From contig DAONGE010000002.1 of the NCBI GenBank assembly GCA_035403965.1, positions 64,466-128,465 on the forward strand: a stretch of DNA of 64,000 nt, given 5' to 3'. Each line of letters begins with the position of its first letter. The stretch's first letter is position 1. The position numbers and the translations under genes were made by a program. Shown here piece after piece: positions 2 through 60,136 of this stretch. This DNA is from Candidatus Omnitrophota bacterium. Lineage in GTDB: Bacteria; Omnitrophota; Gorgyraeia; Tantalellales; Tantalellaceae. A model generated the notes under the pieces. It was not told the origin of the DNA. It did not search any database and worked only from the letters and a program-made list of their open reading frames with translations.

Positions 2-1267
2 CTCTATTGCATTGTAGGCGGACTTATTTCCTGGCAGGCGTTCCTCATGAGCGTTATTGCCGGAGGTGTATATGTTTTTTTATCGAGGCACATGGTCCGG
101 AAATCAAGATCGATAGGCGAAGAGGGGGTTAAGTATACCAACGATGCCCAGCGATGTATCGTCGAGGATCTGAACGGCATAAAATTCATAAAAAGCAATG
201 CCCTGGAGGACCAAAGAAAAAAGACGCTTTTTGGTTTGATGACGGCGATCGGCACACTTGAGTTCAAAAGGGAGAAATATGCAGCTATCCTCGATACGAT
301 GCCGGAAGTTATGATGACCGCCGTCATGTGCGTTGTGTTCTATGTTTCTTATGTGCACCTTAAAGTCCCCGGCGAGAATCTTTTGGTGCTTCTTGCTGTA
401 CTTTACAGGTTCAACAGGCGAATAATGGCTTTGCAAACATTGCGTCAGCGCATTGTGAACTATATCCCATTCTATGAGTTGTGTTCCGAACTGGTAAGGA
501 CGGCGGGTCTGGCCAGGGAAGTGACCGGAACGGAAAAATTCGATGTGCTCAAGACCGGGATACGTTTCTCGTCAGTGGATTTTTCGTATTCCGAGGAGCA
601 TCCCGTACTTAGGGGGATAGACCTCTTTATCAAAAAGAACGAATTTGTGGCGTTCCTGGGCAAATCGGGCAGCGGGAAGACAACTATATTGGACCTTATA
701 ACAGGGTTGTTGAAGGCGCCCAAAGGGGGCGTGTCAATAGACGATATCCCGATAGGCAGATACGATATTTTTACATGGAGAAAAAAGTTGGGATATGTTT
801 CGCAGGACCCGTTTTTGGTAAACGGTACGATTGCCGACAATATACGCATGAGCGCTCTTTCAGTGAGCGATGAAGAGGTGCTTAACGTCGCAAAAATGGC
901 GTATGCGGACGAATTCATATGCCAGTTTCCGGACGGATACAGTACGGTCGTGGGCGATAGCGGCATGAAACTTTCGGGAGGGCAGAGACAGCGCATCGCT
1001 CTGGCCAGGGCACTTGTGCGCAAGCCACAGGTGCTGATACTCGATGAGGCGACAAGCGCGCTCGATAACAATTCGGAAAGTATGATACAAAGGGCGATAG
1101 ACGGGCTCAAGGGGCATCTTACGATAATAGTCGTCGCGCACCGTCTTGCCAGTATAAATTCGGCGGACAAGGTGTATCTTTTGCATGAAGGCAGGATCAG
1201 CAACAAGGGTACGCTTGAAGAGCTGAGAAAGAATTCCAGTGTTTTTCGGGAGTTGTATCATGGCTGA
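2..1267 (+). CDS. ABC transporter permease/ATP-binding protein, MsbA-like exporter (5' partial, runs off window start)
   Basis: The reading frame is open from base 2. A C-terminal TMD segment is followed by an NBD with Walker A GKSGSGKTT, signature LSGGQRQR and Walker B ILDEAT. Confidence 0.8.
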   Translation, partial: LYCIVGGLISWQAFLMSVIAGGVYVFLSRHMVRKSRSIGEEGVKYTNDAQRCIVEDLNGIKFIKSNALEDQRKKTLFGLMTAIGTLEFKREKYAAILDTMPEVMMTAVMCVVFYVSYVHLKVPGENLLVLLAVLYRFNRRIMALQTLRQRIVNYIPFYELCSELVRTAGLAREVTGTEKFDVLKTGIRFSSVDFSYSEEHPVLRGIDLFIKKNEFVAFLGKSGSGKTTILDLITGLLKAPKGGVSIDDIPIGRYDIFTWRKKLGYVSQDPFLVNGTIADNIRMSALSVSDEEVLNVAKMAYADEFICQFPDGYSTVVGDSGMKLSGGQRQRIALARALVRKPQVLILDEATSALDNNSESMIQRAIDGLKGHLTIIVVAHRLASINSADKVYLLHEGRISNKGTLEELRKNSSVFRELYHG

Positions 1268-6284: not shown

Positions 6285-7405
6285 GGATATTCACTGTAAA
6301 TATGGCCCCGGTTAATCCGCCGCATAACGACGGAGTGAAAAATATTCTTGTTAGTATATCTGAAAAAATAAAACGGCATGACTTTATCTTTGTTTCATCG
6401 GCATATGCAGGGGCATTTCCTTTGCGATCTAACGTGCGATACATAAGGTCTATCTTTGAAAAACCGGGGCGGCATAGCATGTCTGTCGGGCAGATCATGT
6501 TTGTTCTGATTGCGATGATGTTCAATCTGCCGGGAACGGATATTCTTCAGTTTTTTATAACTCCGAAACGCGGTTATACCGTTTTTTTGCGGGCTATTAC
6601 GAAATTATCTAATAAAAAATCGATCCAGGTCGTACCGTCGGTGCATACCTTGTTTGCGAACAATGATAAGGTGTCGGACGATATCTTTTTTGCCGACAGA
6701 GTAATAGTGCAATCGGATTATGCGATGTCAAAACTTTGTGCGCTTGGGGTAAAAAACGTGTCGCGGATATATCCGGGGATTAATACCGAGGAATATAAAT
6801 ACAGGCCCGATTGCCGGCGCGCTGCGAATAGGCGAAGGGTGATATATGCCGGCACATATAAGCTTATAGATACGGCTTATTCGCTCGAGGCTTTTCTGGA
6901 GATTGTGCGTGGCGTATGTGTTAAAGATCCGTCCGTGGAATTTGTTATGGCGTGCAGGCTGCGTACAAAAAAGGATATAGAACTTAAAGAAACATTCAAG
7001 CGTATGGTTTTGAAGTCTGATTTGGCGGACAGATTTCTGTACCTGGATAGGGTCGTCGATATGCCGGTGGTAATGAATACTTGTGATATAGGCATTATGC
7101 CGTGTAAACGTGTGATGCCCGGAGTTTTGGAAATACCTATGGCGCTTATAGAAGGGGCCGCTTCGGGGTTGGCTGTAATTTATGGGGATGTTCCTCCTCT
7201 TATGGAATTAGAAAAAAAAGGGATCGGAGTGATGTTGTCTTCTTCTTTGCCGTCGGACTACTCGCAAAAAATAATAGAGCTGCTGAATGATGCGTGCAAA
7301 ATAGAAGAGATACGTGAGAAATCCGGAAAAGCGGTTGTAGAATATTTTGATGTAAATAAAATGGCGGAAGAATATGGGCGGGTCTATGATTCGCTGCGGG
7401 AGTGA
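6281..7405 (+). CDS. Glycosyltransferase family 4-like
   Basis: It overlaps the upstream gene by 4 nt (ATGA). The C-terminal EGAASGLAVIYGDVPPLME fits the GT-B fold. Confidence 0.5.
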   Translation: MRIFTVNMAPVNPPHNDGVKNILVSISEKIKRHDFIFVSSAYAGAFPLRSNVRYIRSIFEKPGRHSMSVGQIMFVLIAMMFNLPGTDILQFFITPKRGYTVFLRAITKLSNKKSIQVVPSVHTLFANNDKVSDDIFFADRVIVQSDYAMSKLCALGVKNVSRIYPGINTEEYKYRPDCRRAANRRRVIYAGTYKLIDTAYSLEAFLEIVRGVCVKDPSVEFVMACRLRTKKDIELKETFKRMVLKSDLADRFLYLDRVVDMPVVMNTCDIGIMPCKRVMPGVLEIPMALIEGAASGLAVIYGDVPPLMELEKKGIGVMLSSSLPSDYSQKIIELLNDACKIEEIREKSGKAVVEYFDVNKMAEEYGRVYDSLRE

Positions 7406-7406
7406 A

Positions 7407-8900
7407 ATGGAAGAAAATGTCAGATATTTTCTGAACGATGACTATCCGGCTGACGATGTTACGGCATATACGCTTAAGCGGATGGCCGATGTCGATGGAG
7501 TCATAAAACCTGTGGTGGCCTTGCCGGATCTGCATTTTAAGGGGTCGTATCATACCCCTACGGGTGTTGTTGTTCTGACAAAAGATAAAATAATACCCAA
7601 GTTTCTGAACGCGAATTGTGGGATGAGTTTTGTGGTTACCACGCTAACGGTGGATGATATCGATAACGGAAAAATCGATTGTTTGTTCAATGCGCTCAAA
7701 AGACATATATCCGTAGCGCTAAGACTTTCCCCGGTAATAACCAGGTACGATCTGGGGAAAATCATAGAGACGGGGGCCGAATGGAGTTTCCGCAGGTTCG
7801 GTCTTGATGAGTCAAACTTGCAGAATATGGAAAACTGCGGGAATATATTTAAAGGGAAGAATATTGATCCGAATGATATCGATGCCAGTTTGCCGGATTT
7901 TATCAAAGACGTCGGGATGTTGAGTATGGGTGTACTGGGATATGGCAATCATTTTGTTGAAATGCAGGCGGTGGATAGCGTGATGGATGCGGAGGCGGCG
8001 AAAATGTTCGATTTGCCCACCGGCAGGATATGCTTTATGATACACGGGGATTCGCGTGGATTTGGCCAGTCGGTGATCGACCATTATTCCAAATATTCAA
8101 AAAAACTGCTGGGGTTACAGCAGGCGTATAAAAGGGTATATTATTCCATGCTGGCTAACAGGAATATCCCATCAGGCATTAAGATCTGTATGGATAGATT
8201 AAATGTTAATTTGAACCGGTATAAGTCGGTGGTGTTTTCCGGGAAGGGTGCAAAAATAAAACGGAGCGTAGAATATCGTTCGATGGATTTGTCGTCAACC
8301 GATGGACGCAGATATATGACGAGTAATTATTGCGCATTGAACTTAGGATATGCAAATAGGGCATATATAGCGGGGACCATTGCCGGGTCGTTACGGGAAA
8401 TTTTTAAAGATAAAAAAATGAATGTTACGATATTGAATGACGGGAATCATGATTCTCTTCAGGAAGAGAATATCGACGGGAAAAATTTTTTGGTGCACAG
8501 GAACGGTGCGGCAAGGGCTCTGCCGCCCGCATATTTTAACGACCATCCGATATTCGCGCGTACAGGCCAGCCGGTGCTCTTGCCTACCGCTCTTGGCAGG
8601 GATTCATATCTTTGTGCTGCAAGAGTGGGGTGTAAAGATTCCTGTTATTCCGCTTGTCACGGGACAGGCCGTCTTGTCGATAGGGGCGAAGCCAGGGGGG
8701 TTTTTACGGATGATGATGTTTACCGGGAAACAGAGGCGAAACGGATGAGAGTGTTCGATTACGGTAAAGGAAAGATATCAGAGGAAGCCCCGGCGGCTTT
8801 TAAAGATGCAAAAAAGATATTGGAAACCATGGAACGCTATAATATCGCCTGTCCGGTGGTTAAATTGCGGCCGGTGGCTGTACTCAAAGGGTGGAGATGA
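7407..8900 (+). CDS. RtcB-family 3'-phosphate RNA ligase homolog (divergent)
   Basis: Motifs were matched to RtcB from memory: ALPDLH, NANCGM (metal-binding Cys), GYGNHFVE, IHGDSRGFG, VHRNGAARA and CHGTGR. The ATG follows 2 nt after the upstream stop. Confidence 0.6.
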   Translation: MEENVRYFLNDDYPADDVTAYTLKRMADVDGVIKPVVALPDLHFKGSYHTPTGVVVLTKDKIIPKFLNANCGMSFVVTTLTVDDIDNGKIDCLFNALKRHISVALRLSPVITRYDLGKIIETGAEWSFRRFGLDESNLQNMENCGNIFKGKNIDPNDIDASLPDFIKDVGMLSMGVLGYGNHFVEMQAVDSVMDAEAAKMFDLPTGRICFMIHGDSRGFGQSVIDHYSKYSKKLLGLQQAYKRVYYSMLANRNIPSGIKICMDRLNVNLNRYKSVVFSGKGAKIKRSVEYRSMDLSSTDGRRYMTSNYCALNLGYANRAYIAGTIAGSLREIFKDKKMNVTILNDGNHDSLQEENIDGKNFLVHRNGAARALPPAYFNDHPIFARTGQPVLLPTALGRDSYLCAARVGCKDSCYSACHGTGRLVDRGEARGVFTDDDVYRETEAKRMRVFDYGKGKISEEAPAAFKDAKKILETMERYNIACPVVKLRPVAVLKGWR

Positions 8901-8901
8901 A

Positions 8902-9534
8902 ATGTTAATAGCGTTTTGCGGTCTGGATGGTGCGGGGAAAACGACTCAGGCTAATTCTGTCGTAAAAATGTTTGAGTCACGCGGCTTAAAATGCGGGTAC
9001 AGACATTTTATAAAAGGAACGTTGAGTTATTATCTGACGCACAATATAGTTGGAAAGGTTAGCATGGGTTTCCGCAGCAGCTTGGAACAAAAGTTGCGGA
9101 AAGAAAAGAAGGGCTTAGATTCTGTGCTTCTTTCCTGGGTGAAGAGGCTGCTTGTATTGGTCGATGTCGTTTATTTTAATCTGAGATACGGGAACCGCAA
9201 AGGGGATGTATTAAACAATATCGTCTGTGATCGATATTATTATGACGAATTGGTGCAATTAAACTACTTGGGGTTTAAGCTAGGAGTAATGGAGAAGTTT
9301 ATAAAACGGATCATGATAGAGCCTGACAGGATATTTTACATAGATATTCTTCCCGAAACGGCTTTTACGCGTAAATCCGAGGGGTTTTGTGAAGAGTATT
9401 TTAGGATCAAAAGTAAGAGATATAAAGACTATTTGCCAAAAAGCACTGTGTGTATACCGGGGGATGGGACCGAGGGTGAAATAAAAGATATTATTTTGTC
9501 AGAGATGAAAAAGTTCCTTCCCGGAGAGCATTAA
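8902..9534 (+). CDS. dTMP kinase-like P-loop nucleotide kinase
   Basis: The N-terminal IAFCGLDGAGKTTQ P-loop and a CDRYYYD (DRY) motif are characteristic of thymidylate kinase. The ATG follows 2 nt after the RtcB-like stop. Confidence 0.5.
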   Translation: MLIAFCGLDGAGKTTQANSVVKMFESRGLKCGYRHFIKGTLSYYLTHNIVGKVSMGFRSSLEQKLRKEKKGLDSVLLSWVKRLLVLVDVVYFNLRYGNRKGDVLNNIVCDRYYYDELVQLNYLGFKLGVMEKFIKRIMIEPDRIFYIDILPETAFTRKSEGFCEEYFRIKSKRYKDYLPKSTVCIPGDGTEGEIKDIILSEMKKFLPGEH

Positions 9535-9624: not shown

Positions 9625-10581
9625 TTGGTGATAAATATCTTTAATAAAAAAACATTCCAAGTGGCTTTTGTTGTTGTTGTCACGGTAGTGTTTATATTTT
9701 TTATCCAGTCGCATTTAGACTATTTAAAAAAAGCAGCGAGTATGAGCCCGCTGTTGATCGTTGCCGTGATAAGTATGGATATTCTTAGTAAGGCTTGCAG
9801 CGGGTTAAAAATAAAGATCGTTTTAAAAAAATTTGGCATCAGGCTTTCTTTTAAGGAATGGTATGGCCTGTCGTCCATGTCGGCGTATTACAATTATTTT
9901 TTTTCGAAAAGCGGCACAGTGTTAGCCGCCACATATGTCAGGAAGAAATACGGCTTTAATTATTCGAAATATGCGGGTTTTTTAATGGGAGATGTGGCTA
10001 CCGTAGTTATTGCGTCCGGAGTGTTGGGTACGGTTGCATCGTTGCTCTGGGAAAATTTTACAAAAAATTCCACGCACAGTATTGTTGTTGTGTCTTTTTT
10101 TATCTTGTTTGTCATGGCGTCCCTGGTTTTTTTCATTCCAAAGTTTAGATTGCCGAAGCGGGGAATAATGACAAAAATAAACAGCGCAATGGATGGTTGG
10201 TATTCGGTAAAAGCAAAACCGGACATTCTGGTCGCCATGTTTTTTTTGAATATGGCTATCATTGTCATATTTGCTATACGGTATTACGTGCTTTTTAGGG
10301 TTTTTTCTGATCCTGTCCCGTTCTCGATATGCTGCCTGGTCTCTCCGCTTGCAAATCTTACGCAGATATTAAGCGTGGTGCCATCGGCATATGGGCTAAG
10401 GGAAGCAGTGATGGGCGGTATGACTAAATTGTATGATTTTGGTTTTGTTTCCGGGGCGATAGTTTCTATAATAGACAGGGTGATCATGATGCTGGTCTTT
10501 TTTATTTTAGGCCCGCTGTTCACCTATATGTTGATGAAAAAGACGGGATATGACAGGGAAGATAGGAGGGATGCGGAGTGA
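9625..10581 (+). CDS. Polytopic membrane protein, flippase-like (LPG-synthase-TM/UPF0104-type)
   Basis: It has 6-8 predicted TM helices and an UPF0104-like sequence pattern. The start codon is uncertain (TTG/GTG). Confidence 0.35.
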   Translation: MVINIFNKKTFQVAFVVVVTVVFIFFIQSHLDYLKKAASMSPLLIVAVISMDILSKACSGLKIKIVLKKFGIRLSFKEWYGLSSMSAYYNYFFSKSGTVLAATYVRKKYGFNYSKYAGFLMGDVATVVIASGVLGTVASLLWENFTKNSTHSIVVVSFFILFVMASLVFFIPKFRLPKRGIMTKINSAMDGWYSVKAKPDILVAMFFLNMAIIVIFAIRYYVLFRVFSDPVPFSICCLVSPLANLTQILSVVPSAYGLREAVMGGMTKLYDFGFVSGAIVSIIDRVIMMLVFFILGPLFTYMLMKKTGYDREDRRDAE

Positions 10582-29896: not shown

Positions 29897-29937
29897 GTTG
29901 CGGATGTGTGAGCAAAGAGTTCTGGGAGATTTGTTGA

Positions 29938-30078
29938 AGATGGCGTGCGGAAATCCGAGCATTGGAGAGAAAAGGCCACAATAGATAAAAGTAAATTACG
30001 CATCTACGCGAGGCAAACGCCGGGAGAATAAAAATAACAGGACTTTTCTCGAAACGCGCAGGATAACGCACGCCATCT
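29938..30078 (+). ncRNA. Candidate structured RNA / cis-regulatory leader element, copy A
   Basis: A perfect 12-bp closing stem (agatggcgtgcg / cgcacgccatct) encloses a core about 85% identical to copy B. The internal hairpin cgc-atcta-gcg is present. The strand is not determined. Confidence 0.4.
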
Positions 30079-30146: not shown

Positions 30147-31742
30147 ATGGTAGCAGATGGCAAATTTCCCTTATCGGTGGTGATAATCACCAAGAACGAG
30201 GAAAAACGTATCAAGGATTGTATCGAAAGTGTTAAATGGGCCGCTGAAATAATTGTTCTCGATGATTTCAGCAGGGACAGGACGGTCGATATCGCTAAGG
30301 AGCTTGGGGCGAAGGTTTATCAGAAGCAATGGACGAACGAAGGGGCCCACAGGAATTATGCGTATTCTCTCGCGACTAACGATTGGATACTCAGCCTTGA
30401 CGCGGATGAGCGCGTTACACCGGAACTGAAAGAGGAGATTGTTAGTACGCTGCAAAACGGCACGGATTGTAACGGTTTTGCTATCCCGAGAAAAAATTTT
30501 ATAGGCACATATTGGCTTCAGTATGGCGGATGGTATCCGAGCGCCCAGCTTCGTCTTTTCAGGCGCGGTGAGTTCAAGTATGAGGAAGTTGATGTTCATC
30601 CGCGCGCTTTCATGAAGGATCCGAGGGGAAATCTGAAAAATCCGATGCTTCATTATAGCTACAGGGACCTGGAAGATTTTGTGGCAAAGACCGACAATAT
30701 GACATCGCGCGAATGCGCGAAATGGATAGAGACGAAAGCCGAGATGCCTTTCGGCCGGGCGCTCAGGAGAAGCTTAGACAGGTTTTTCAGGGCGTATGGC
30801 CGAAAGCAGGGCAAGAAAGACGGGATGTACGGTTATATCGTGGCGATACTCGGCGGGTTTTACCAGTTTTTGAGTTATGCTAAATATTGGGAGAGAAAGC
30901 TTGGTGCCGCGTATCCTTATGATAATAAGTTGAAGGAACCTTTTGAGAAAATAGGCGCGAAGGATTGCGATAAGGAAAGAAAAAAATTATCCGTCGTCAT
31001 ACTGACCAAGAACGAAGAAGATAAGATTGCACATTGTCTGGCTACGCTTACATGGGCCGATGAAGTCGTACTTGTGGACGGTTTCAGTACCGATCTCACA
31101 GCTGAGATAGCCGAGAAATTCGGGGCGAAAGTGGTTCCACATAAATTCGAAGGGGATTTCGGTCTTGAAAGGAATATCGGTATAGAAAATTCATCGGGGG
31201 ACTGGGTGCTACAGCTTGACGCCGATGAAATGATGACCGCGGGTTTCAAGAAGAGGATCCTGTCTATCTTAAAAAAAGATGAAGGTTATGTGGCGTATAA
31301 ATTTATAAGGAAAAATTCTTTTCTCGGAAGATTCATGCGATATGGCGGATGGTATCATTATTCGCATCATTTTTTCAAAAAAGGGTTTGCGCATTACGAC
31401 GGCAGGGTGCACCATCAGCTTATCGTTGACGGCAAGCTTGGGGTTATTAAGGACGAACTTGAGCATTATCCGTTCCAGAGCATCGCGCAACTTGTTTCCA
31501 GACAGAATAGATACACGACCATAGAAGCCAGAGAGCTTATGGAACTTCGCGGGACGGTCAGCGATAAGGAATTCGCGTATAACATAAAAACTAAACCGCT
31601 GAAACTTTTCTGGAAGTTCTATGTTAAAAAGCAGGGATTCCGGGAAGGGATGCACGGGTTTATCTTTTCGGTATTATTTGCCTGGGTGCATTTTATAAAA
31701 TGGGCGAAGTATTGGGAAATGGCGCACGGAAAAGAGCAGTGA
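30147..31742 (+). CDS. Tandem-domain GT2 glycosyltransferase (two WaaE/KdtX-like GT2 domains)
   Basis: Two repeats of LSVVIxTKNEE...DDFS(T)D... are each followed by the DADE motif. Confidence 0.7.
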   Translation: MVADGKFPLSVVIITKNEEKRIKDCIESVKWAAEIIVLDDFSRDRTVDIAKELGAKVYQKQWTNEGAHRNYAYSLATNDWILSLDADERVTPELKEEIVSTLQNGTDCNGFAIPRKNFIGTYWLQYGGWYPSAQLRLFRRGEFKYEEVDVHPRAFMKDPRGNLKNPMLHYSYRDLEDFVAKTDNMTSRECAKWIETKAEMPFGRALRRSLDRFFRAYGRKQGKKDGMYGYIVAILGGFYQFLSYAKYWERKLGAAYPYDNKLKEPFEKIGAKDCDKERKKLSVVILTKNEEDKIAHCLATLTWADEVVLVDGFSTDLTAEIAEKFGAKVVPHKFEGDFGLERNIGIENSSGDWVLQLDADEMMTAGFKKRILSILKKDEGYVAYKFIRKNSFLGRFMRYGGWYHYSHHFFKKGFAHYDGRVHHQLIVDGKLGVIKDELEHYPFQSIAQLVSRQNRYTTIEARELMELRGTVSDKEFAYNIKTKPLKLFWKFYVKKQGFREGMHGFIFSVLFAWVHFIKWAKYWEMAHGKEQ

Positions 31743-31783
31743 GCTAAAGAGGTTGTTTTTGGGAAAAAATAAAGTTGTTTGAG

Positions 31784-31925
31784 GCGCCGGGCCGGGGTGT
31801 TCGAGCACTGGAGCGATTTTGAGGCAATAGATAAAAATAAATTACGCGTCAGCGCGAGTCGAACGCCGGGAGTATAAAAATAACACGAAAAATCGCGAAG
31901 CGCGCAGAATGCCCCGGCCCGGCGC
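31784..31925 (+). ncRNA. Candidate structured RNA / cis-regulatory leader element, copy B
   Basis: A perfect 14-bp closing stem (gcgccgggccgggg / ccccggcccggcgc) encloses the same conserved core (caatagataaaaRtaaattacgc...cgccgggagWataaaaataaca). The internal hairpin cgcg-tcag-cgcg is present. Confidence 0.4.
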
Positions 31926-31958
31926 GTGGCTAAAAAGTATTTTTAATGGGACAAGGAT

Positions 31959-33122
31959 ATGAGCGAGAAAGATAAAACGTGCGACATAGTGTTGTTGAGT
32001 TATGAGAACCCGGATCTTTTGGAGAAATGCGTAGTGAGTGTTCTTCATAATACGGATGTTCCGTCGCGTCTTATTATTGTCGATAACGCGAGTCGTAACG
32101 AGCGCGTGAAAAAATACATAAGTGATCTGGCGGGGAATGATGTTGTTTCTATCGAAAAAGTGTTTTGCGACAGGAATTATGGATTCGCCGGAGGTATAAA
32201 TAGAGGGATGCGGCTTTCGACATCCTCTTTTGTGTGCATACTGAACAATGATTGTATCGTGACGAAGTCATGGCTTTCGGAAATGATCAGTGTGGCCGTA
32301 AGTCAGAAAAATATCGGGCTTGTTAATCCGCAAAGCAGTACGTTCGGTTCTATCCCGTCTCCGGAAAAAGGGATCGAGAAGCACGCTGCCGAACTTTCAT
32401 GCCGTAAAGGGAAATATACGGAGCTTGGACATGCGATAGGTTTCGCGTGCCTTATAAAACGCGAGGTGATAGACAAGATTGGATATCTGGACGAGATATT
32501 TGAAGGCGTGTGCTATGAGGATACGGATTACTCCATGAGGGTGTTAAAGGCCGGATATATTTCGGTCATCGCCGAAGGGGCGTATGTTTTTCATCTGGAG
32601 CAGGCTTCGCGTAAAAATCTTAAGAACAGGGATGAAATATACGCGCGTAATTTATCATTATTTACAGAGAGATGGGGAAAGATACTGCGGGTATTGTATC
32701 TGGATCAGGGGCTCGATATCACTCAGACCGAATTTTTAAGAGAAGATTACGAGATGATGAGAGCGCTGTCCCGGCAAAGGGCTTTTGTGGATATGTGGGT
32801 CAAAGACAGTAAAAAACTGGTCACCCCTGGCGGCGCGTATGAATATCTTGGGGTTATACGCCATGCCGACGTTAATTTGAATGTGTTTTCGGACGCGTTT
32901 TACGGGATCCGTTTTCTGTGGAAAGTCCTTACAAAGAAGAAAAAGTATGACGCGGTTATTTTAAAGCAGGGTTTTTTATCCGGGATAGTTTCGTTTTTTG
33001 CGTTTACCGGTCGATATAAGGTCTTTATCCTGAACTACGATGATCGACTGATCGGGCCGGACGGAAAAATATTCGATCTTGTTGACGCCGTTGGATTAGC
33101 GGGGTATCTGAGGGGCGAATGA
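31959..33122 (+). CDS. Glycosyltransferase family 2
   Basis: It has IVLLSYEN, IIVDNASRNE and a YEDTD acidic motif. Confidence 0.65.
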   Translation: MSEKDKTCDIVLLSYENPDLLEKCVVSVLHNTDVPSRLIIVDNASRNERVKKYISDLAGNDVVSIEKVFCDRNYGFAGGINRGMRLSTSSFVCILNNDCIVTKSWLSEMISVAVSQKNIGLVNPQSSTFGSIPSPEKGIEKHAAELSCRKGKYTELGHAIGFACLIKREVIDKIGYLDEIFEGVCYEDTDYSMRVLKAGYISVIAEGAYVFHLEQASRKNLKNRDEIYARNLSLFTERWGKILRVLYLDQGLDITQTEFLREDYEMMRALSRQRAFVDMWVKDSKKLVTPGGAYEYLGVIRHADVNLNVFSDAFYGIRFLWKVLTKKKKYDAVILKQGFLSGIVSFFAFTGRYKVFILNYDDRLIGPDGKIFDLVDAVGLAGYLRGE

Positions 33123-41763: not shown

Positions 41764-44700
41764 ATGACAAAGCATTTCCTTTCTTCTAACCTGCCTAAAA
41801 AAACTGTATCTGTATTTGTGGTGTTGTCATTTTTGATCGGGCAAAGTTTATTTGGTAGTGAGGTTTTTGCCAGTGTTCCACAGCAAGATTGTCTGGCTGT
41901 ACCGAATACCAGTGATGATATTGTACCTGATCAGAGCGCTGCCGTTCGTGAAGAGATAATCCATTATTTGGAACCAGGCGCGTTCGGGAAAGGTTCACCT
42001 TTGCAGGCGCTTGTAAAACATAACCTTCCGGTGTCTTCGTCAGCCGAAAAAATAAATGCCGCCAGAGAAATGCTTGCCGAGGCGACGGATATAGCGATAC
42101 ATAAAGTTTTTGAGAATGGAGACAGAGTGGCGGAATCGTATCGCCGGGTGTTAGCTATGGCTTTGGACAATCTTATAGACCTGGAAAGTCGAATTGAAAA
42201 AGATACTTATATTTTTGATGCTGTTGTGACCGGACCGAATGATTATCTTTTTGATTTCAATCTTCTTCCATATGAGACATGTTATGGGTTTTCGTTCGAA
42301 ATTGTTGATTATCTGTATCGAAGATCGCCTGAACGGCTTGCGGAGTATGTATTCCGAAAAAGTTTACCTGAACATTATCGGGAAAAAAACCAGGCGGCTG
42401 ATGTGGCTGGGCAAAATTCAGATATTGAGGAAGACAAACGCCTTTATTATGAAAAGATGTGTAATGTTGTTTTGGTGGATATATTTGGGTTGAACGAAGG
42501 GGCCGGTTTCCGCTCGGATCTGCATGGTTTTTATGAAAGCATAATGTCCGGGACAAAAGAAAATGGACAGGTATGGTTGACCCCGGATGAAGCGACGGGA
42601 TATCTTAACGATCTTCCGAATATAGGGAGTTTTGAGAAACTTAAGAAGTTTTACCACATGGCCGAAAAGGAAAAAATATCTTACACGGAATTTCTCTCGC
42701 AACTCGCCCCGGAGCTGGGTGTAATGGCGGATATCCTGAGCCGGACAAAACCGCATGATGAACTTAACGCGCTTCTTGAAAAGGGGCAGAACATAACCAT
42801 AGAACAGCTGGATATACTTCGAAGTGCGGGCGAATTCGCGCTTCAGTTCATGGCGGAAAAGCAAGGTGTTGATAATAAAGAACGACTGAAACAGATAAAA
42901 GAAACGTTTGTAAAATATCCCGAGCTGTCAAAGTATTTCATATCATATTTTGAGACAAAATTCGATCCGGAAAAAGATCTTAATGCTCGCGGTGAAGCCG
43001 CCGGGGCGATAAGGGATGAAATGGTCAAATTGATGGATCAGGCGGGGATAAATTCTGAAGATATGCAGGTGTTCTATACGACGCTCGCCATGATGGTCTC
43101 GACTGTCAGAACGAATTATTATGTCCCAAAAAGAACAGAACTTACTTTTAGGATAGAGCCCCGTACTTTGGTGCTGGTTGACAGGAGTAAAGCGCTTATC
43201 AGGACGCCGCCTACCGCCATAATATGGGTGCATGTCCCGTATGGTGTATATGGTGCCCATTCGCGGTATAGCAATGTCGCGCGCGGTGGATTAAGATTTT
43301 TAAGGCCGGAACGTACTCAATTACGCAATAAAGTGCTTTCTGAATGCGTCGCGTTGTCGTTCACGCAGCATAAAAAACATATGGATATACCCGAAGGCGG
43401 CTCTAAAGGGGCTTTTATTTGCGAGGAAGGATTGAACCCTGTCGCCGCGTCGGTAGGATATGTTGATGGTTTGATAGAGTGCATGATGCCGAATAAAAGG
43501 ATAGTGGTCGGGGCCGGAGCGTCTGCCGTTGATCCGTTGGAATTAGGGCCGGATGAGGGAACGGCTGAGTTGGCAAATCTGATAACGGTACGCGCATGGA
43601 TGCTTGGGCTTAGCGATTGGCGGCTTTTAATGACCGGTAAGGCAGACGTTCTTTTCGGGGTTTCTCATATGAAAAACGATCTGCTGGATCCGCCGGAATC
43701 AGGGAACAGGGTAACGTCGCAGGGTGTTATCACGCATGCCGTGGAAATGGCGAGATATTTAAGGGATAAAGGTGTTATAACATCCAAAGAAAATGAGCCG
43801 ATCTTTTTTTCGATGACCGGAGGTCTGGATGGGGATGTCGGCAGCGGTAATGTGGAACGGCTTATGCATCACTACGGTGAAAATGCCAGGATACGGTCGC
43901 TGGTCGATATTTCAGGAGTGATGTTCGATCCGGAAGGGTTAGATCATCAGGCGCTTTACGAGATGTATAACAAAGGGATGCGTGCGGCAAGTTTTCCAAA
44001 AGAGAAATTGCATGAAGGAGGTTTTGTGGCGCGGGCTGTATCCGGTCCGGCAGAGGATAATTATATAGAGCTTGGTGAGGCGTCGCTTAAATACATGAAT
44101 GCGCGTGCTCTCGATCCTAAAACTTTGGAAGAGCTTGGCATTGACAAAATATATAAAAAACAAGCAGGGCTTAAAGAGGATGAGCCGCTTATAACGGTGC
44201 TTGAGAGGGGCGTGAACGGGGTTCCTGTCAGAATAAAAGTTCATGGCGTTTTTCTGCGGGACGCGCTTTTCTTTCTGACAAAAGCGGATATGTTGGTGCC
44301 CGGCGGTGGGGTTAAAGACGCGATAAACGAAAAAAATTGGAAGCTTTTTATCGATGAGAATGATTCCCCGGTGACAAAAAGTATAGTTTATGGGGCTAAC
44401 GTGTTTATGGAAAAAAGCGCCGGAGATAATTTGGAAAAGTTGGGAGTTGTGATCGAACCGGATGAGAAAGCTAATTCCGTCGGCGTTGAAATTTCCAGTC
44501 GCCAGGAGATAGATTCTAACCTTTTGTTCAGAGAATCTGAGCTGACAATCGATATTAAAAAAGAGTATTTTAGGCAAGTCCTCGCGAAATGTATCGCGAA
44601 CGCGAAGGAAAAATTCTGGGCATTGAGGATTGAGGCGGAAAAACAGCCGGATGTCCCGGTGGTGACCGGTATTTCGTCAAAGATGTCAGCCGAAGTGATA

Positions 44701-45825
44701 AGGCTTACGGAATCGATATTGAACTCGCCTTTGGTCGGAGAAAGAAAAGGAGATTATTCTCCTAAAGTATTATCCTATCTGAAAGAATATTTTCCAGATC
44801 TGTCACAGGTAGATAAAGGATATTCCACTACGATAGACCGTGTGTTTGATCGTATGCCGTCCGATCGCATAAAAGCGATAGTTGCGAAGATGATAGCGAA
44901 AGATGTTGTAATGTATCTCGGTATCGATGGTATTGCCGAGGCGTGTTCCAGGGCTAAGGCCGAAGAGTTAAAGGTCATTGAGGTGTTTCTTGAATATGCT
45001 CACGTTAACGGGCTTCATAAAAAAACCAAAGAAATAGTGGATAATAAGGAAGGCTTAAGCCCGTCTGAACAGATGTCAAAGCTTAGGGCCGTTCGAGAAG
45101 AGACCATGAATAGGGTTTACGCCCTTTTCTCGGACAAAGGCGAGAGTGATATTATTAAGTATGGAAGAGATGCTGAAACGGAGCGTGTCATAAACGGGAT
45201 TATTAAAGATGTCCCACTGAGGGCAAGGATATTTCTGGTCCATCTCGCGCGGGTAACGAAAAATAGTGACACATACCATTATCTGGGGATAGAGACCGGA
45301 TCGGATAGCCATCGAGAGGCAGTGCTGTCGTCTACAGTATACAAGGCATTGAAGAAACTTCAAGACGCGCGGGATGAAAATGGTGAATTGATGTTCCCAA
45401 AGTTGATCGTCGAGATAGGGACAAGCGATGTGTTGGTGAGAAATATCGGTGAACGTATGGACAAGGGCGAATTGAGCTCGGAGCAGGTCTTTATAAGCGC
45501 CTTGAGATCAAGCGTGGAGCATGCCGCATTTAAGAGCATTGAGGGAAGCGCTTGGATAGCGGCGATTGATGATTCAACCGGCATGAATTATATACCGGTC
45601 GTTGAGGCGGCTATTATCAATATGATGGCATATAGAGGCGCTGGATTGGCGCAGATAAAGAAGATCTATGACTCTATATCTAAAGAGCCTAAGACAATAC
45701 AAGAACTTGAAGATATGATAACAAAACGCGTGATATCCATTATCCCTAAAAGTGTTCCGATCAATTATGATGTGATGCGCGACATTTGTGATCTTATGGC
45801 TAAACAGATCGATTCGGCCGCGTAA
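41764..45825 (+). CDS. Large (1353-aa) protein with an N-terminal signal peptide/TM and a C-terminal region resembling glutamate dehydrogenase (ELFV/Bac_GDH-like) catalytic and NAD-binding domains
   Basis: GDH-like blocks are NVARGGLRF, DIPEGGSKG, the Rossmann motif GGLDGDVGSGNV, KADMLVPGG and IVYGANVFM...LGVVIEPDEKANSVGVEISSRQE (cf. EGAN.P.T.EA..IL..RG..PD..ANAGGV.VSYFE). The N-terminus is hydrophobic. Confidence 0.5.
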   Translation: MTKHFLSSNLPKKTVSVFVVLSFLIGQSLFGSEVFASVPQQDCLAVPNTSDDIVPDQSAAVREEIIHYLEPGAFGKGSPLQALVKHNLPVSSSAEKINAAREMLAEATDIAIHKVFENGDRVAESYRRVLAMALDNLIDLESRIEKDTYIFDAVVTGPNDYLFDFNLLPYETCYGFSFEIVDYLYRRSPERLAEYVFRKSLPEHYREKNQAADVAGQNSDIEEDKRLYYEKMCNVVLVDIFGLNEGAGFRSDLHGFYESIMSGTKENGQVWLTPDEATGYLNDLPNIGSFEKLKKFYHMAEKEKISYTEFLSQLAPELGVMADILSRTKPHDELNALLEKGQNITIEQLDILRSAGEFALQFMAEKQGVDNKERLKQIKETFVKYPELSKYFISYFETKFDPEKDLNARGEAAGAIRDEMVKLMDQAGINSEDMQVFYTTLAMMVSTVRTNYYVPKRTELTFRIEPRTLVLVDRSKALIRTPPTAIIWVHVPYGVYGAHSRYSNVARGGLRFLRPERTQLRNKVLSECVALSFTQHKKHMDIPEGGSKGAFICEEGLNPVAASVGYVDGLIECMMPNKRIVVGAGASAVDPLELGPDEGTAELANLITVRAWMLGLSDWRLLMTGKADVLFGVSHMKNDLLDPPESGNRVTSQGVITHAVEMARYLRDKGVITSKENEPIFFSMTGGLDGDVGSGNVERLMHHYGENARIRSLVDISGVMFDPEGLDHQALYEMYNKGMRAASFPKEKLHEGGFVARAVSGPAEDNYIELGEASLKYMNARALDPKTLEELGIDKIYKKQAGLKEDEPLITVLERGVNGVPVRIKVHGVFLRDALFFLTKADMLVPGGGVKDAINEKNWKLFIDENDSPVTKSIVYGANVFMEKSAGDNLEKLGVVIEPDEKANSVGVEISSRQEIDSNLLFRESELTIDIKKEYFRQVLAKCIANAKEKFWALRIEAEKQPDVPVVTGISSKMSAEVIRLTESILNSPLVGERKGDYSPKVLSYLKEYFPDLSQVDKGYSTTIDRVFDRMPSDRIKAIVAKMIAKDVVMYLGIDGIAEACSRAKAEELKVIEVFLEYAHVNGLHKKTKEIVDNKEGLSPSEQMSKLRAVREETMNRVYALFSDKGESDIIKYGRDAETERVINGIIKDVPLRARIFLVHLARVTKNSDTYHYLGIETGSDSHREAVLSSTVYKALKKLQDARDENGELMFPKLIVEIGTSDVLVRNIGERMDKGELSSEQVFISALRSSVEHAAFKSIEGSAWIAAIDDSTGMNYIPVVEAAIINMMAYRGAGLAQIKKIYDSISKEPKTIQELEDMITKRVISIIPKSVPINYDVMRDICDLMAKQIDSAA

Positions 45826-45877
45826 TATCCGCCAGTCAGGTATGGTATTTTATGCCCCATGGCCCGGTATTTTTCTG

Positions 45878-45906
45878 TTGCATATTCAGGAACAGAAGTA
45901 TATAAT
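45878..45906 (+). promoter_or_regulatory. Sigma70-type promoter (TTGCAT-17 nt-TATAAT) for gap
   Basis: The -35 lies at 45878-45883 and the -10 at 45901-45906, with an RBS AGGAGG before the ATG at 45986. Confidence 0.6.
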
Positions 45907-45910
45907 TTGA

Positions 45911-47050
<1,140 letters not shown>

Positions 47051-47075
47051 TAGCCTGTAAAATAGGGTGTTTGAA

Positions 47076-47108
47076 GGGGCGGTTCATCGGGAACCGCCCC
47101 TTTTTATT
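47076..47108 (+). terminator. Rho-independent terminator after gap
   Basis: A 10-bp GC stem (ggggcggttc/gaaccgcccc) with loop atcgg is followed by TTTTTATTT. Confidence 0.8.
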
Positions 47109-47146
47109 TAGTGGTCGGTTATTTTCGGATTTGTGGTCAGCTTGCA

Positions 47147-47352
47147 GTATAAAGTCCGAACGGTAAGATCCCTTCCCCCAAAATTTTTTAACGTATTTTT
47201 TATCGCTTTTCAGGGGGCATGCAAAAACTCGCCCCCCATGTGTTCCTATATCCGTCGGGGCTCAGACATTTGCATGCCTGTTTCCCTGAAAAGCTCAAAA
47301 AATACTAAAATTTTGAAGGGGCCCCTTGGATCTTGCCGTTTGGACTTTATTC
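47147..47352. repeat. Long imperfect palindrome (about 205 bp, MITE-like / long hairpin) element 1
   Basis: The outer arms gtataaagtccgaacggtaagatcc (47147-) and ggatcttgccgtttggactttat (-47350) are near-perfect reverse complements. Inner arm segments also match, with the centre near 47250. Confidence 0.55.
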
Positions 47353-47484
47353 CGCACCAGAACCCCCCAAACTCCGGTTGGGGGGTGAATAGGGATGCCG
47401 AACACATGGTGTTCGATGCGGGATTCCGCAATAAAAAGGAACTGCAGATTCCTGTTCGAGGGGCTCCATGATATGCGATGAGGT

Positions 47485-47718
47485 GGGGAGAAGGTTCAAT
47501 TTTGAAGTGAATACGATTTTCCCAAGAATTTTTTGACAATTTTGGGAACCCTTGGAATGGAAATGACAAGGGCGGCGAGGACTGTTTGAGGTTTAACGGG
47601 GTATGTGTTCTGCTAAAGAACATATATCCCGTTAAACCGAGTTCCGCAGACGCCAAAATTGGCGAGAAATTCTTGGGAAAAGAAAATCGTCTGAACGAAA
47701 AAATTGAACCTTCTCCCC
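47485..47718. repeat. Long imperfect palindrome (about 235 bp, MITE-like / long hairpin) element 2
   Basis: The outer arms are ggggagaaggttcaatttt...cgattttcccaagaatttt and gagaaattcttgggaaaagaaaatcg...aaaattgaaccttctcccc. A central 21-bp hairpin lies at 47590-47638. Confidence 0.55.
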
Positions 47719-47875
47719 ATTCGGCGGAAGAAAAGGCAAAATGGACAAAAGGGGGGGGACTATGGGCAAAAAACCTTTGCCTAAAGGGCGGAAGTATGCT
47801 ATAAATATTGACCTACGCAAGGGGCTTTTTCTGTGTAAAAACATTGCATAGCCCTATAATAATGGAGGGGGAAAC

Positions 47876-49054
47876 ATGAAGAAAACCGTTAAAGATGTGC
47901 AGATCAAGGGTAAAAGAGTGTTGATGCGCGTTGATTTCAACGTGCCTCTCGACGAAAAGAGAAATATAACGGATGACAGCCGTATAACGGCCGCTCTTCC
48001 GACGATAGAATACGTGCTCCAGAACGGTGGAAAACTTATATTGATGAGCCATCTCGGTCGTCCGGACGGGGAAGTTATGATGGAATATTCCATGGCCCCT
48101 GTCGCCGAAAGACTTTCCGAGCTTCTCAAACTGAACGTCAAGAAACTTGATGATTGCGTGGGAGAAGACGTTGAAGAAGCTGTAAGGCAGATGAAGGCAG
48201 GAGAAGTGGTTCTCCTTGAAAACCTGAGGTTCCATAAGGGCGAGACAAAGAACGACCCGGTTTTCGCGAAACAGCTAGCTTCTTTAGGCGACGTATTCGT
48301 TATGGATGCGTTCGGTACTTGCCACAGGGCGCATGCTTCTACCGAAGGTGTTACAAAATACCTTCCGAGCGTCGCGGGATTCCTGGTCGGCAAGGAAATA
48401 GAATATTTCGAAAAAGTCACGAAGAATCCAGAAAAGCCGTTCACCTTGATACTGGGCGGCGCGAAAGTTTCGGATAAGATCCCGGTCATTGAGAATATGC
48501 TGAAGAGAGTGGATTTTTTGCTTATCGGCGGCGCGATGGCATACACGTTTCTTAAGTCCAGAATGAAGGGCATAGGAAATTCCAAGGTGGAAGATAAAAT
48601 GCTTCCTACCGTTAATAAGATATTCGAGCTTGCCAGTGTGAATAAAGTCGGTATTTTCCTTCCGAAAGATCATGTTGTCGTGAAAGAGGTCAAAGAAGGA
48701 ACAAAGAGCAAGGTTGTTACAGAGCATATTCCGGATGGCTGGATAGGCCTTGATATCGGTCCCGAGACGATAAAAAGTTTTAAGTCTGTTCTTGAAGATT
48801 CCAAAACTATCGTTTGGAACGGTCCGATGGGGCTATTTGAAATGAAGCCGTTCGATGAAGGTACGAATGAATTGGCGAAATGCATGGCTAAACTTAAAGC
48901 CACTACCGTGATAGGCGGAGGCGATACGGCGGCCGCGGTAAATGAACTCGGGCTCGGCGATAAGATGTCGCATGTTTCGACCGGCGGCGGAGCTTCTCTG
49001 GAATATCTTGAAGGAAAGATCCTTCCGGGTATAGCGGCTTTGAACGATAAATAA
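47876..49054 (+). CDS. pgk: Phosphoglycerate kinase
   Basis: It has RVDFNVPLD, ILMSHLGRP, the hinge and the C-terminal GGGDT..A. Confidence 0.9.
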   Translation: MKKTVKDVQIKGKRVLMRVDFNVPLDEKRNITDDSRITAALPTIEYVLQNGGKLILMSHLGRPDGEVMMEYSMAPVAERLSELLKLNVKKLDDCVGEDVEEAVRQMKAGEVVLLENLRFHKGETKNDPVFAKQLASLGDVFVMDAFGTCHRAHASTEGVTKYLPSVAGFLVGKEIEYFEKVTKNPEKPFTLILGGAKVSDKIPVIENMLKRVDFLLIGGAMAYTFLKSRMKGIGNSKVEDKMLPTVNKIFELASVNKVGIFLPKDHVVVKEVKEGTKSKVVTEHIPDGWIGLDIGPETIKSFKSVLEDSKTIVWNGPMGLFEMKPFDEGTNELAKCMAKLKATTVIGGGDTAAAVNELGLGDKMSHVSTGGGASLEYLEGKILPGIAALNDK

Positions 49055-53788: not shown

Positions 53789-53804
53789 TGTAATTTAGAA
53801 TATT

Positions 53805-53880
53805 AGTTGGGAGTTAGGAGCTAGGAGACGGGAGGGTTAAATCCCACCCCCTCCTGACTCCAAGCTCCAAACTACTAACT
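53805..53880 (+). promoter_or_regulatory. Intra-operon long stem-loop (GGAG-repeat arm pairing with CTCC-repeat arm)
   Basis: An imperfect inverted repeat of about 35 bp, agttgggagttaggagctaggagacgggagggtt ... accccctcctgactccaagctccaaactactaact, sits between the permease and ATPase genes. Confidence 0.45.
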
Positions 53881-53890
53881 AAAGTAGAAT

Positions 53891-59870: not shown

Positions 59871-59880
59871 TTTTGAAATT

Positions 59881-59920
59881 ATGATGGGGTGGGGATTTAA
59901 TCGCCACCCCATCATATTTA
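59881..59920 (+). terminator. Stem-loop terminator-like element after the lectin gene
   Basis: A 12-bp perfect stem (atgatggggtgg/ccaccccatcat) with an 11-nt loop is followed by ATTTA. Confidence 0.5.
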
Positions 59921-60136
59921 GTAAGTAAAAAATCCGGATCCCAGTCAGATGATTGGCGAGAGGGCATCATAGCCGCCATACAATTCTACATATTGGGAAT
60001 GTCGTGCTCCCTGCCGTTGCAGATTCATCAGATATAATTATTTATAAAGAACAAAATATAAATCGGATTTGTTCAACTATGTATTGGTAATGTATAATTC
60101 TAGCTTAAGGGGCAAGAACATGCCCCGGGAGGATAT

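Follow-up and report, generated by a model that had tools for sequence, protein, structure and literature searches.

What fills the unusually long space between two glycolytic genes in an uncultured Omnitrophota bacterium, and is it a gene, a regulator or a dispersed repeat? The DNA in question is a stretch of 64,000 nucleotides from Candidatus Omnitrophota assembly GCA_035403965.1 (contig DAONGE010000002.1, positions 64,466 to 128,465; hereafter the window, numbered from its first base), in which gap, encoding glyceraldehyde-3-phosphate dehydrogenase (GAPDH), and pgk, encoding phosphoglycerate kinase (PGK), are separated by 825 bp. This spacer is the longest intergenic stretch of the window (the next measure 422, 266, 250, 250 and 239 bp) and contains two long imperfect hairpins, designated E1 and E2. 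The analysis presented below indicates that E1 and E2 are probably a dispersed repeat, selfish or acting at the RNA level, rather than a gene or a pgk-specific regulator. The narrower reading, a non-autonomous doublet of hairpin repeats resembling repetitive extragenic palindromic (REP) sequences and REPINs, ERIC elements and miniature transposable elements with inverted repeats (MITEs), is one to which we assign about even confidence. A first-pass annotation, made from the sequence of the same DNA, had not recognised the two hairpins as members of a single family that lie in inverted orientation and carry a conserved core specific to one strand.

The gap-pgk junction and its two hairpins

E1 and E2 follow the intrinsic terminator of gap (Table 1), and coordinates, arms and folds all confirm the first-pass description of an 825-bp spacer with a terminator and two long palindromes. 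The terminator begins 22 nt past the gap stop codon and consists of a 13-bp G+C-rich stem (8 G-C pairs) with a 5-nt loop (stem 47073-47103) and a following T-run, the arrangement expected of a rho-independent terminator placed directly after a stop codon. E1 has outer arms at 47143-47171 and 47328-47356 plus inner arms, and its 221-nt fold reaches -98.9 kcal/mol against -50.0 +/- 4.6 kcal/mol for dinucleotide shuffles. E2, with arms at 47484-47545 and 47653-47719 and a central hairpin with 22-nt arms at 47590-47638, reaches -127.6 against -61.5 +/- 4.7 kcal/mol. The E2 rod is laid out as a closing stem P1 (47484-47503/47700-47719), an internal loop J1 (GAAGUGAAUA / UCUGAACGAA), the helices P2 and P3, a side hairpin P4, the helix P5, a core loop (halves at 47583-47590 and 47638-47641) and an apical hairpin P6. 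The terminal inverted repeats are perfect over 20 nt in E2 and 86% identical over 29 nt in E1; both elements are non-coding, shorter than about 600 bp and folded over their whole length, as MITEs are. Two smaller palindromes reported earlier were also recovered, one within E1 (AAGGGGCCCCTT at 47316-47327) and one between the elements (Table 1).

Table 1. Features of the gap-pgk junction in window coordinates
Feature	Position	Strand	Evidence or remarks
gap (GAPDH)	45986..47050	+	Pfam Gp_dh_N and Gp_dh_C
Intrinsic terminator of gap	47073..47112	+	terminator scan; inverted repeat I7 100% complementary
E1, 214-nt imperfect hairpin	47143..47356	- (core strand)	fold z -10.6; R2 31.8 bits on minus vs 6 on plus strand
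E1 apical core	47228..47268	-	GGCAUGCAAA-UGUCUGAG-hairpin-CGAG-UUUUUGCAUGCC (flanks ..GCAAA / UUUUUGC..); descriptor scan
Inter-element stretch, 127 nt	47357..47483	.	between inward-facing 5' ends; small hairpins including CCCCCCAAACTCCGGTTGGGGGG at 47364-47386
E2, 236-nt hairpin element	47484..47719	+	fold z -14.0; R2 83.3 bits, E 1.5e-21
P4 side hairpin of E2 (CCCUUGG...CAAGGG)	47549..47572	+	independent minimum-free-energy folds of both copies; pair counts
E2 core domain	47575..47648	+	P5 GCGAGGAC/GUUCCGC; loop UGUUUGAG...CGAG; 21-bp apical hairpin P6
pgk-proximal 156 nt	47720..47875	+	Shine-Dalgarno GGAGGGGG at 47864-47871
pgk	47876..49054	+	PF00162; starts with ATG

The spacer is neither coding nor a known RNA. 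A concatenate of all spacer open reading frames (ORFs) of at least 28 aa found nothing among 5.8 billion protein clusters, and a 170-codon minus-strand frame retrieved only unrelated tandem-repeat proteins among 1.84 billion representatives, so that the earlier dismissal of the spacer ORFs as non-credible is upheld by protein searches that found no real relatives. Rfam 15 gave no match at the gathering threshold in the whole window and only chance-level matches at E <= 10 in the spacer. Neither a promoter nor a terminator could be assigned to E1 or E2, no consensus sigma-70 promoter was found in the pgk-proximal 156 nt, and the stretch between the elements showed no similarity elsewhere when compared by blastn and nhmmer with the window and 80 related loci. 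The G+C content of the spacer (0.45) falls within the range of 0.42-0.48 across the window, contrary to the distinctive composition that had been attributed to it. All credible genes of the window lie on the plus strand, along which GC skew is constantly positive, and the statement that they overlap or stand a few bases apart is mostly true, several intergenic gaps of 150-420 bp excepted.

The spacer is 100% identical in two further metagenome assemblies, from different samples, and a third contig (L001, JGI 3300025858) starts inside the left arm of E2; given this base-for-base identity and the contig that begins in E2, the spacer is not an assembly artefact. A single T in a T6 run (L001 1-10 against window 47525-47530) is the sole difference in 7 kb. 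The window population is clonal (>99.98% identity), and these assembly copies therefore carry no covariation information. The window PGK is 100% identical to the NCBI entry 'MAG TPA: phosphoglycerate kinase [Candidatus Omnitrophota bacterium]'; no further relative exceeds 81% identity, the value of the best match among GTDB representatives.

Eighty loci around PGK relatives, which carry L-numbers, were compared with the window. In 48 of them gap lies upstream of pgk on the same strand, with a median spacer of 52 bp; 46 of these 48 spacers measure only 1-307 bp, and the two long ones (~800-850 bp) hold a 265-aa ORF. On account of these short spacers, the content of the window spacer is a lineage-specific addition. 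No sequence similarity to any relative's gap-pgk junction was detected by blastn or nhmmer across the 80 loci, and the comparison of orthologous junctions that the first-pass annotation had called for thus found the content missing from those of 48 relatives. The short spacers of relatives usually carry a terminator-like hairpin, which in spacers of 200-307 bp is followed by AT-rich sequence. Some separation of gap and pgk is therefore normal in the clade, but 0.6 kb of rod-like structure is confined to the window organism. The further idea that an insertion split a tight operon and made pgk dependent on a new promoter is weakened by those relatives in which gap is followed by a terminator-like hairpin within a spacer of 200-307 bp.

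The order priA-fmt-gap-pgk-tpi-secG-opp is kept across these loci. In the window genome only, a 1353-aa NAD-glutamate dehydrogenase (GDH, a ~4-kb gene) sits between fmt and gap, as seen when window 41764-47050 was compared with L004-L032, L013 and L078. With the gap genes of those relatives that stand nearest in PGK, the window gap shares only 45-53% identity; with those of L013 and L078 it shares 82-86%, the value for L078 being 83%, and the variant is common to the window genome and L013. This pattern suggests that gap was replaced in place by a different lineage of the gene, and the junction has been remodelled in the window lineage through a different gap variant and the upstream insertion of GDH.

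The homologous hairpin and the shared core

A homologue of E2 is present in another Omnitrophota metagenome-assembled genome (MAG; PGK 78% identical) as a 190-nt hairpin (L012:1-190) on the opposite strand, ~195 nt upstream of gap. The lead came from a long-inverted-repeat scan of all related-locus DNA plus a weak nhmmer match (E 0.006); apart from it, blastn and nhmmer comparison of the spacer with the window and the 80 loci gave self-matches only. R2, a covariance model for which the L012 copy was the sole input, has E2 as its only window match with default filters, at a score of 83.3 bits (E 1.5e-21). Independent minimum-free-energy folds of E2 and of the L012 minus strand give the same architecture: P1, which closes the rod; a 10x10 internal loop whose sequence (GRAGUGAAU / UCUGAACGRA) is conserved; P2, likewise conserved (CGAUUUU/AAAAUCG); P3, which is long and variable; the 24-nt side hairpin P4, which in E2 covaries with its L012 counterpart CCCAAAACC...GGUUUUGGG; P5 (in E2 GCGAGGAC/GUUCCGC); an asymmetric loop (UGUYUGAG / CGAG); and a variable apical hairpin P6. 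Among 57 comparable pairs, 29 are unchanged, 5 changed on one side, 19 compensatory and 4 broken; these counts come from a model-guided alignment and hence lean towards structure, but the two folds, made independently, agree.

The two copies also share a folding preference. The plus strand of E2 folds at -124.8 kcal/mol against -98.0 for the minus strand, and the core strand of L012 at -97.7 against -80.3; in each, the core strand has five G.U pairs and no A.C mismatch. This asymmetry, taken from predicted folds, argues that the elements may function as a single strand, RNA or single-stranded DNA, and not as plain duplex palindromes. E1 shows no strand asymmetry in folding. In L012 the edge of the contig coincides exactly with that of the element, just as L001 starts inside E2, and contig breaks at both elements would fit repeats that confuse assemblers. 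An ORF of 95 aa that overlies the L012 element is spurious and had no match other than itself.

The two conserved blocks flanking P6 were then used as a search pattern (25 fixed bases plus one Y, gap 12-42), which matches two GC-rich IMG/VR contigs, L090 and L091; by our own estimate, fewer than 0.1 chance matches are expected for 25 fixed bases. A 55-position model of the core, R1, made from L012 and three GC-rich copies and containing no window sequence, recovers E2 with 34.8 bits, an E-value of 3.3e-5 when the whole window is searched, and adds a further copy in L091. Core copies thus lie in L091 at 114-169(-) and 262-317(+) and in L090 at 9033-9087(-) and 10228-10282(+), and the L012 and L091 cores agree at 17+14 bases. 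Of the seven cores tabulated, six typical ones have an invariant loop UGUYUGAG...CGAG, the seventh, L091b, being degenerate (UGUCUGAC, apex barely paired). P6 has six different sequences in the six typical cores, all of them paired (4-21 bp), while P5 shows compensatory changes from GGAC/GUUC to GCAC/GUUGC in L090b and to AUGCAAA/UUUUUGCAU in E1. A G.U pair and a GA/AG juxtaposition are likewise conserved across the core copies, the latter, like both stems beside it, being present in the six typical cores and degenerate in L091b. With a homologue at another locus and strand and the core in unrelated contigs, the first-pass suggestion that the palindromes are dispersed hairpin elements is supported.

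Further searches for the family returned little. A looser core pattern found only the L090 and L091 loci again in viral contigs; the P2/J1 block pattern gave 22 chance matches there, none with the core, and the E1 terminal pattern none at all. Exact matches to the terminal 19-mer of E2 in metagenome and viral contigs amounted to six single chance matches with no extended similarity, in a scan that missed the organism's own JGI contigs and is thus silent on copy number. The L090 and L091 elements had no BLAST match in phage and plasmid collections and only chance-level Rfam matches at E <= 5 in their surroundings, and a literature search by sequence string retrieved primer matches only. Neither R1 nor R2 found a member in the gap-pgk spacer of any of the ~80 related loci.

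The core also lies at the apex of E1, on the minus strand (Table 1). It is the second-best R1 match in the whole window, both strands (128 kb searched, filters off, 9.6 bits), and the chance that a given 70-nt target holds this second rank is ~1e-3; E1 and E2 are moreover the only window matches of R2 below E 0.001. E1 is without the P4 side hairpin and without the conserved J1 loop. The 5' ends of E1(-) and E2(+) face each other across 127 nt, and the same (-,+) arrangement with inward 5' ends recurs in all three pairs, those of the window, L090 and L091. The two L091 copies fold with each other as a single long hairpin; those of L090 enclose an ORF of 303 aa and lie beside, and not inside, a Mu-like prophage.

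Positions 8900-10400 of L090 hold two inverted composite repeats, each made of the core plus hairpin modules ending TTTGGTT.CTTTTCTT...AAGAAAAG, just outside the repressor end of the prophage. Judged by eye, the 303-aa ORF is AT-richer than its surroundings and resembles DUF2971, and the layout resembles that of a cargo gene with the repeats on either side.

Competing explanations and neighbouring structures

Several observations weigh against reading E1 and E2 as a mobile repeat doublet. No target-site duplication was found at E1 (flanked by GGTCAGCT and CCAGAACC), at E2 (flanked by GATGAGG and TTCGGCGG) or around the pair, and no direct repeat of 2-10 bp exceeded chance. No further copy was found in the 64-kb window or in 15 kb of additional flank, DNA taken up chiefly by a polysaccharide-synthesis cluster, glycolysis genes and the opp transporter, and neither a transposase nor a RAYT (PF01797) occurred among the genes scanned with Pfam in these ~79 kb, a scan that did not include every ORF. 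Of the first-pass proposal of a MITE-like insertion or hairpin RNA, the lineage-specific addition of hairpins therefore stands, whereas neither the target-site duplications nor, within these ~79 kb, the second copy that were to accompany an insertion were found. Identity between E2 and L012 is higher in unpaired (69%) than in paired columns (57%), and the core strand folds better whatever the direction of the neighbours, since E2 runs with the neighbouring genes and L012 against them. The latter fact disfavours a purely mutational origin of the asymmetry through positive GC skew. Loops conserved above stems and stability of the sense strand are classic marks of functional RNA, though transposition as a single-stranded DNA hairpin would leave the same marks. 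The membership of E1 is supported with moderate confidence and depends mainly on its exactly placed core: R2 gives E1 31.8 bits, but also gives 22.9 to an unrelated generic hairpin in L012 and 33.7 to the wrong strand of the true L012 member. Finally, E1 and E2 share only core and architecture and are far too diverged for a recently active MITE family.

These points notwithstanding, the dispersed-repeat reading accounts for the locus as follows. E1 and E2 are two strongly diverged copies of one strand-specific hairpin family, placed head-to-head downstream of the gap terminator and added to a junction that has otherwise been reshaped in the lineage. Mobility is inferred: a moving agent would recognise the invariant asymmetric apical loop UGUYUGAG...CGAG, through which the elements would spread in the form of a single-stranded hairpin. 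An effect on expression is conceivable, in that E2, if transcribed with pgk or by read-through from gap, would form a rod of about -125 kcal/mol in RNA, a plausible RNase III or stability determinant.

Much of the same evidence could also be explained by a new family of structured non-coding RNAs, an alternative that we consider possible but on balance unlikely. The ~200-nt rods, with their closing stem, 10x10 internal loop and three-way junction, would then be genes or domains in the case of E2, L012 and perhaps E1, the apical domain with its tandem G.A pairs, which resembles a kink-turn (k-turn), would bind protein, and the 55-nt GC-rich copies would be minimal modules. The multi-helix architecture common to the independent folds of E2 and L012, the pair counts and loop identities given above, the greater stability of the core strand in both orientations relative to genes, the conserved G.U pair and GA/AG juxtaposition, and the lack of more copies in 79 kb are all consistent with such a family. 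However, neither element has an assignable promoter or terminator, E1 is symmetric in its folding, and the pair counts derive from no more than two or three sequences, in an alignment fitted to the model. Copies are arranged as inverted doublets and, in the GC-rich contigs, come twice within 1.2 kb, which is typical of repeats and not of RNA genes, and the elements are missing from ~60 other Omnitrophota gap-pgk loci, with no conserved genomic context. A bolder version, which we regard as speculative and a little less probable still, would see in the invariant loop and covarying helices the protein-binding heart of a new RNA or single-stranded DNA module common to several phyla, with the Omnitrophota rods, in which a three-way junction and a second conserved internal loop would have enlarged the module, as independent non-coding RNAs, perhaps decoys or scaffolds of a protein that binds k-turns, and not as junk repeats.

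A third reading, which we consider improbable, takes the hairpins for a cis-acting part of the gap-pgk transcript, a module of processing, stability or attenuation by which the gap:pgk expression ratio would be set. Both Omnitrophota occurrences adjoin gap, one in the window spacer and one ~195 nt upstream of the gene in L012, but only pgk neighbourhoods were sampled, an ascertainment bias, and the core is found in unrelated genomic contexts too. A hairpin usually stands between the two genes in relatives as well, yet E1 and E2 are missing from the junctions of at least 46 of them, and the conserved position upstream of the same gene that a pgk leader or riboswitch would require was not found. 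Mismatches in the arms of E1 and E2 favour G.U on the mRNA-sense strand by 9 to 2, an excess that may stem from strand-biased mutation, given the positive GC skew. Moreover, the L012 copy is antisense to gap, the E1 core is antisense to the operon, and a strong terminator stands before the elements.

The weakest proposal, very improbable in our view, has the palindromes form in situ, through snap-back or template-switch duplication or as a recombination scar of the gap/GDH replacement, with coincidental similarities; the remodelled junction and the lack of target-site duplications would suit it, but the E2-L012 match (E 1e-21) with its common architecture cannot be chance and essentially refutes it for E2, R1 finds E2 although it was built without window sequence, and the second-best R1 match in 128 kb falls exactly on the E1 apex. 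Tn3-type inverted repeats, attC sites, hammerhead ribozymes, 5S-like RNA and signal recognition particle (SRP)-like RNA were weighed and dropped, as their defining motifs are absent from the conserved blocks.

Other structured elements were observed in the window. Two paralogous structured elements of ~150-170 nt (29925-30075 and 31775-31945, plus strand) lie directly upstream of two genes for family-2 glycosyltransferases (30147-31742 and 31959-33122). Common to both are long unpaired blocks of identical sequence (AAUAGAUAAAARUAAAUUACGC, AACGCCGGGAG.AUAAAAAUAACA and CGAARCGCGCAG), and their stems differ in sequence and still pair, 10 of 25 predicted pairs being compensatory; no Rfam match was found for them, and they are a candidate new cis-regulatory RNA or riboswitch. 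Within the opp transporter operon, window 53789-53890 forms a 102-nt hairpin (z -9) with GGAG/CUCC-like units, and L012 has a 125-nt G+C-rich hairpin (7005-7129) at a different opp junction, neither with the core of E1 and E2. A structured intergenic region of 266 nt (59871-60136, z about -4.9) follows a PEP-CTERM lectin gene and opens with a near-perfect hairpin whose arms measure 21 bp (59877-59919). An RtcB RNA ligase gene (7374-8900) stands in the odd neighbourhood of the glycosyltransferase/polysaccharide cluster, ~40 kb from the hairpins.

Imperfect hairpins of 150-325 nt also occur near pgk in related loci: L023 (11955-12279), L065 (5564-5813 and 11331-11520), L068 (10250-10449), L020 (2479-2647, between pgk and tpi), L004 (1222-1386) and L061 (11710-11912). 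These loci are mostly from Omnitrophota MAGs, L061 being labelled Desulfatiglans. All of these hairpins are without the core, unrelated in sequence to E1 and E2 and unmatched by R1 and R2. Genomes of this kind may harbour long hairpins quite generally.

Comparison with known repeat and RNA families

To our knowledge, almost nothing is known of the non-coding DNA of the Omnitrophota, which are uncultured, and E1, E2 and the L012 copy make up the first defined hairpin-element family for this group, with R1 and R2 as two working covariance models. Should the family be multi-copy, it would be a new REPIN/MITE-like system and the invariant loop would point to the recognition site of a mobilising enzyme; should it be single-copy and expressed, it would represent a new class of structured RNA that contains a k-turn-like module. 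Whichever of the two holds, 0.6 kb of highly stable secondary structure has come to separate the genes of a conserved glycolytic junction. The locus also carries a practical warning, since assemblies break at these elements.

Among RNAs, the closest comparisons are with the k-turn and with rod-like RNAs. The k-turn consensus consists of a C stem, a 3-nt bulge, tandem sheared G.A/A.G pairs and an NC stem. As read from the sequence, the core similarly passes from a canonical stem (GGAC/GUUC) through nucleotides that are unpaired on one side and juxtaposed G.A and A.G to a second stem, whereas its unpaired stretch is 5 nt long (UGUYU) and not 3 nt. In length (~200 nt) and in the pairing of 5' and 3' ends into a rod with conserved internal loops, the Omnitrophota elements resemble 6S RNA and the Y-RNA-like YrlA, from which they differ in having no Rfam match even at E <= 10, no conserved neighbourhood and an arrangement in inverted pairs.

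The resemblance to interspersed repeats is broader. Like REP sequences and REPINs, E1 and E2 are short extragenic imperfect palindromes in which an invariant asymmetric motif stands beside a variable but paired stem; they are non-coding and intergenic, a position that is often after terminators, and compensatory change keeps the hairpin. Inverted doublets able to form a larger hairpin, another REPIN trait, were found in the window, in L091 and in L090. Unlike REP sequences, which bear a conserved 5' GTAG/GTGG head on a palindrome of 20-40 nt, they have no such head, the invariant motif being instead an internal loop, UGUYUGAG...CGAG, within the stem, and the Omnitrophota units are rods of 190-236 nt with a three-way junction, ~5-10 times REP size (units overall 55-236 nt). 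REP sequences are species-specific, so that a near-identical core across phyla is a further difference. REP and REPIN elements are mobilised by RAYT (Y1/HUH) transposases (PMC3116915, PMC3337134).

ERIC, Correia (NEMIS) and other bacterial MITEs are known kinds of such repeats; they are defined by terminal inverted repeats related to insertion sequences, by target-site duplications and by many similar copies, and MITEs such as ERIC and Correia/NEMIS are co-transcribed and can alter mRNA processing or stability (PMC2229807, PMC10969869). E1 and E2 differ from MITEs in lacking target-site duplications and a known parent insertion sequence, and in that only the core is common to both. Since target-site duplication and GTAG head are both missing, formal membership fails for the MITE class and for the REP class alike, and neither is assigned. 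What E1 and E2 do share with MITEs is a size of 100-300 bp, folding over the whole length and a location in or between transcription units in either orientation, and together these features are best described as those of a variant among interspersed hairpin repeats, a previously unannotated family.

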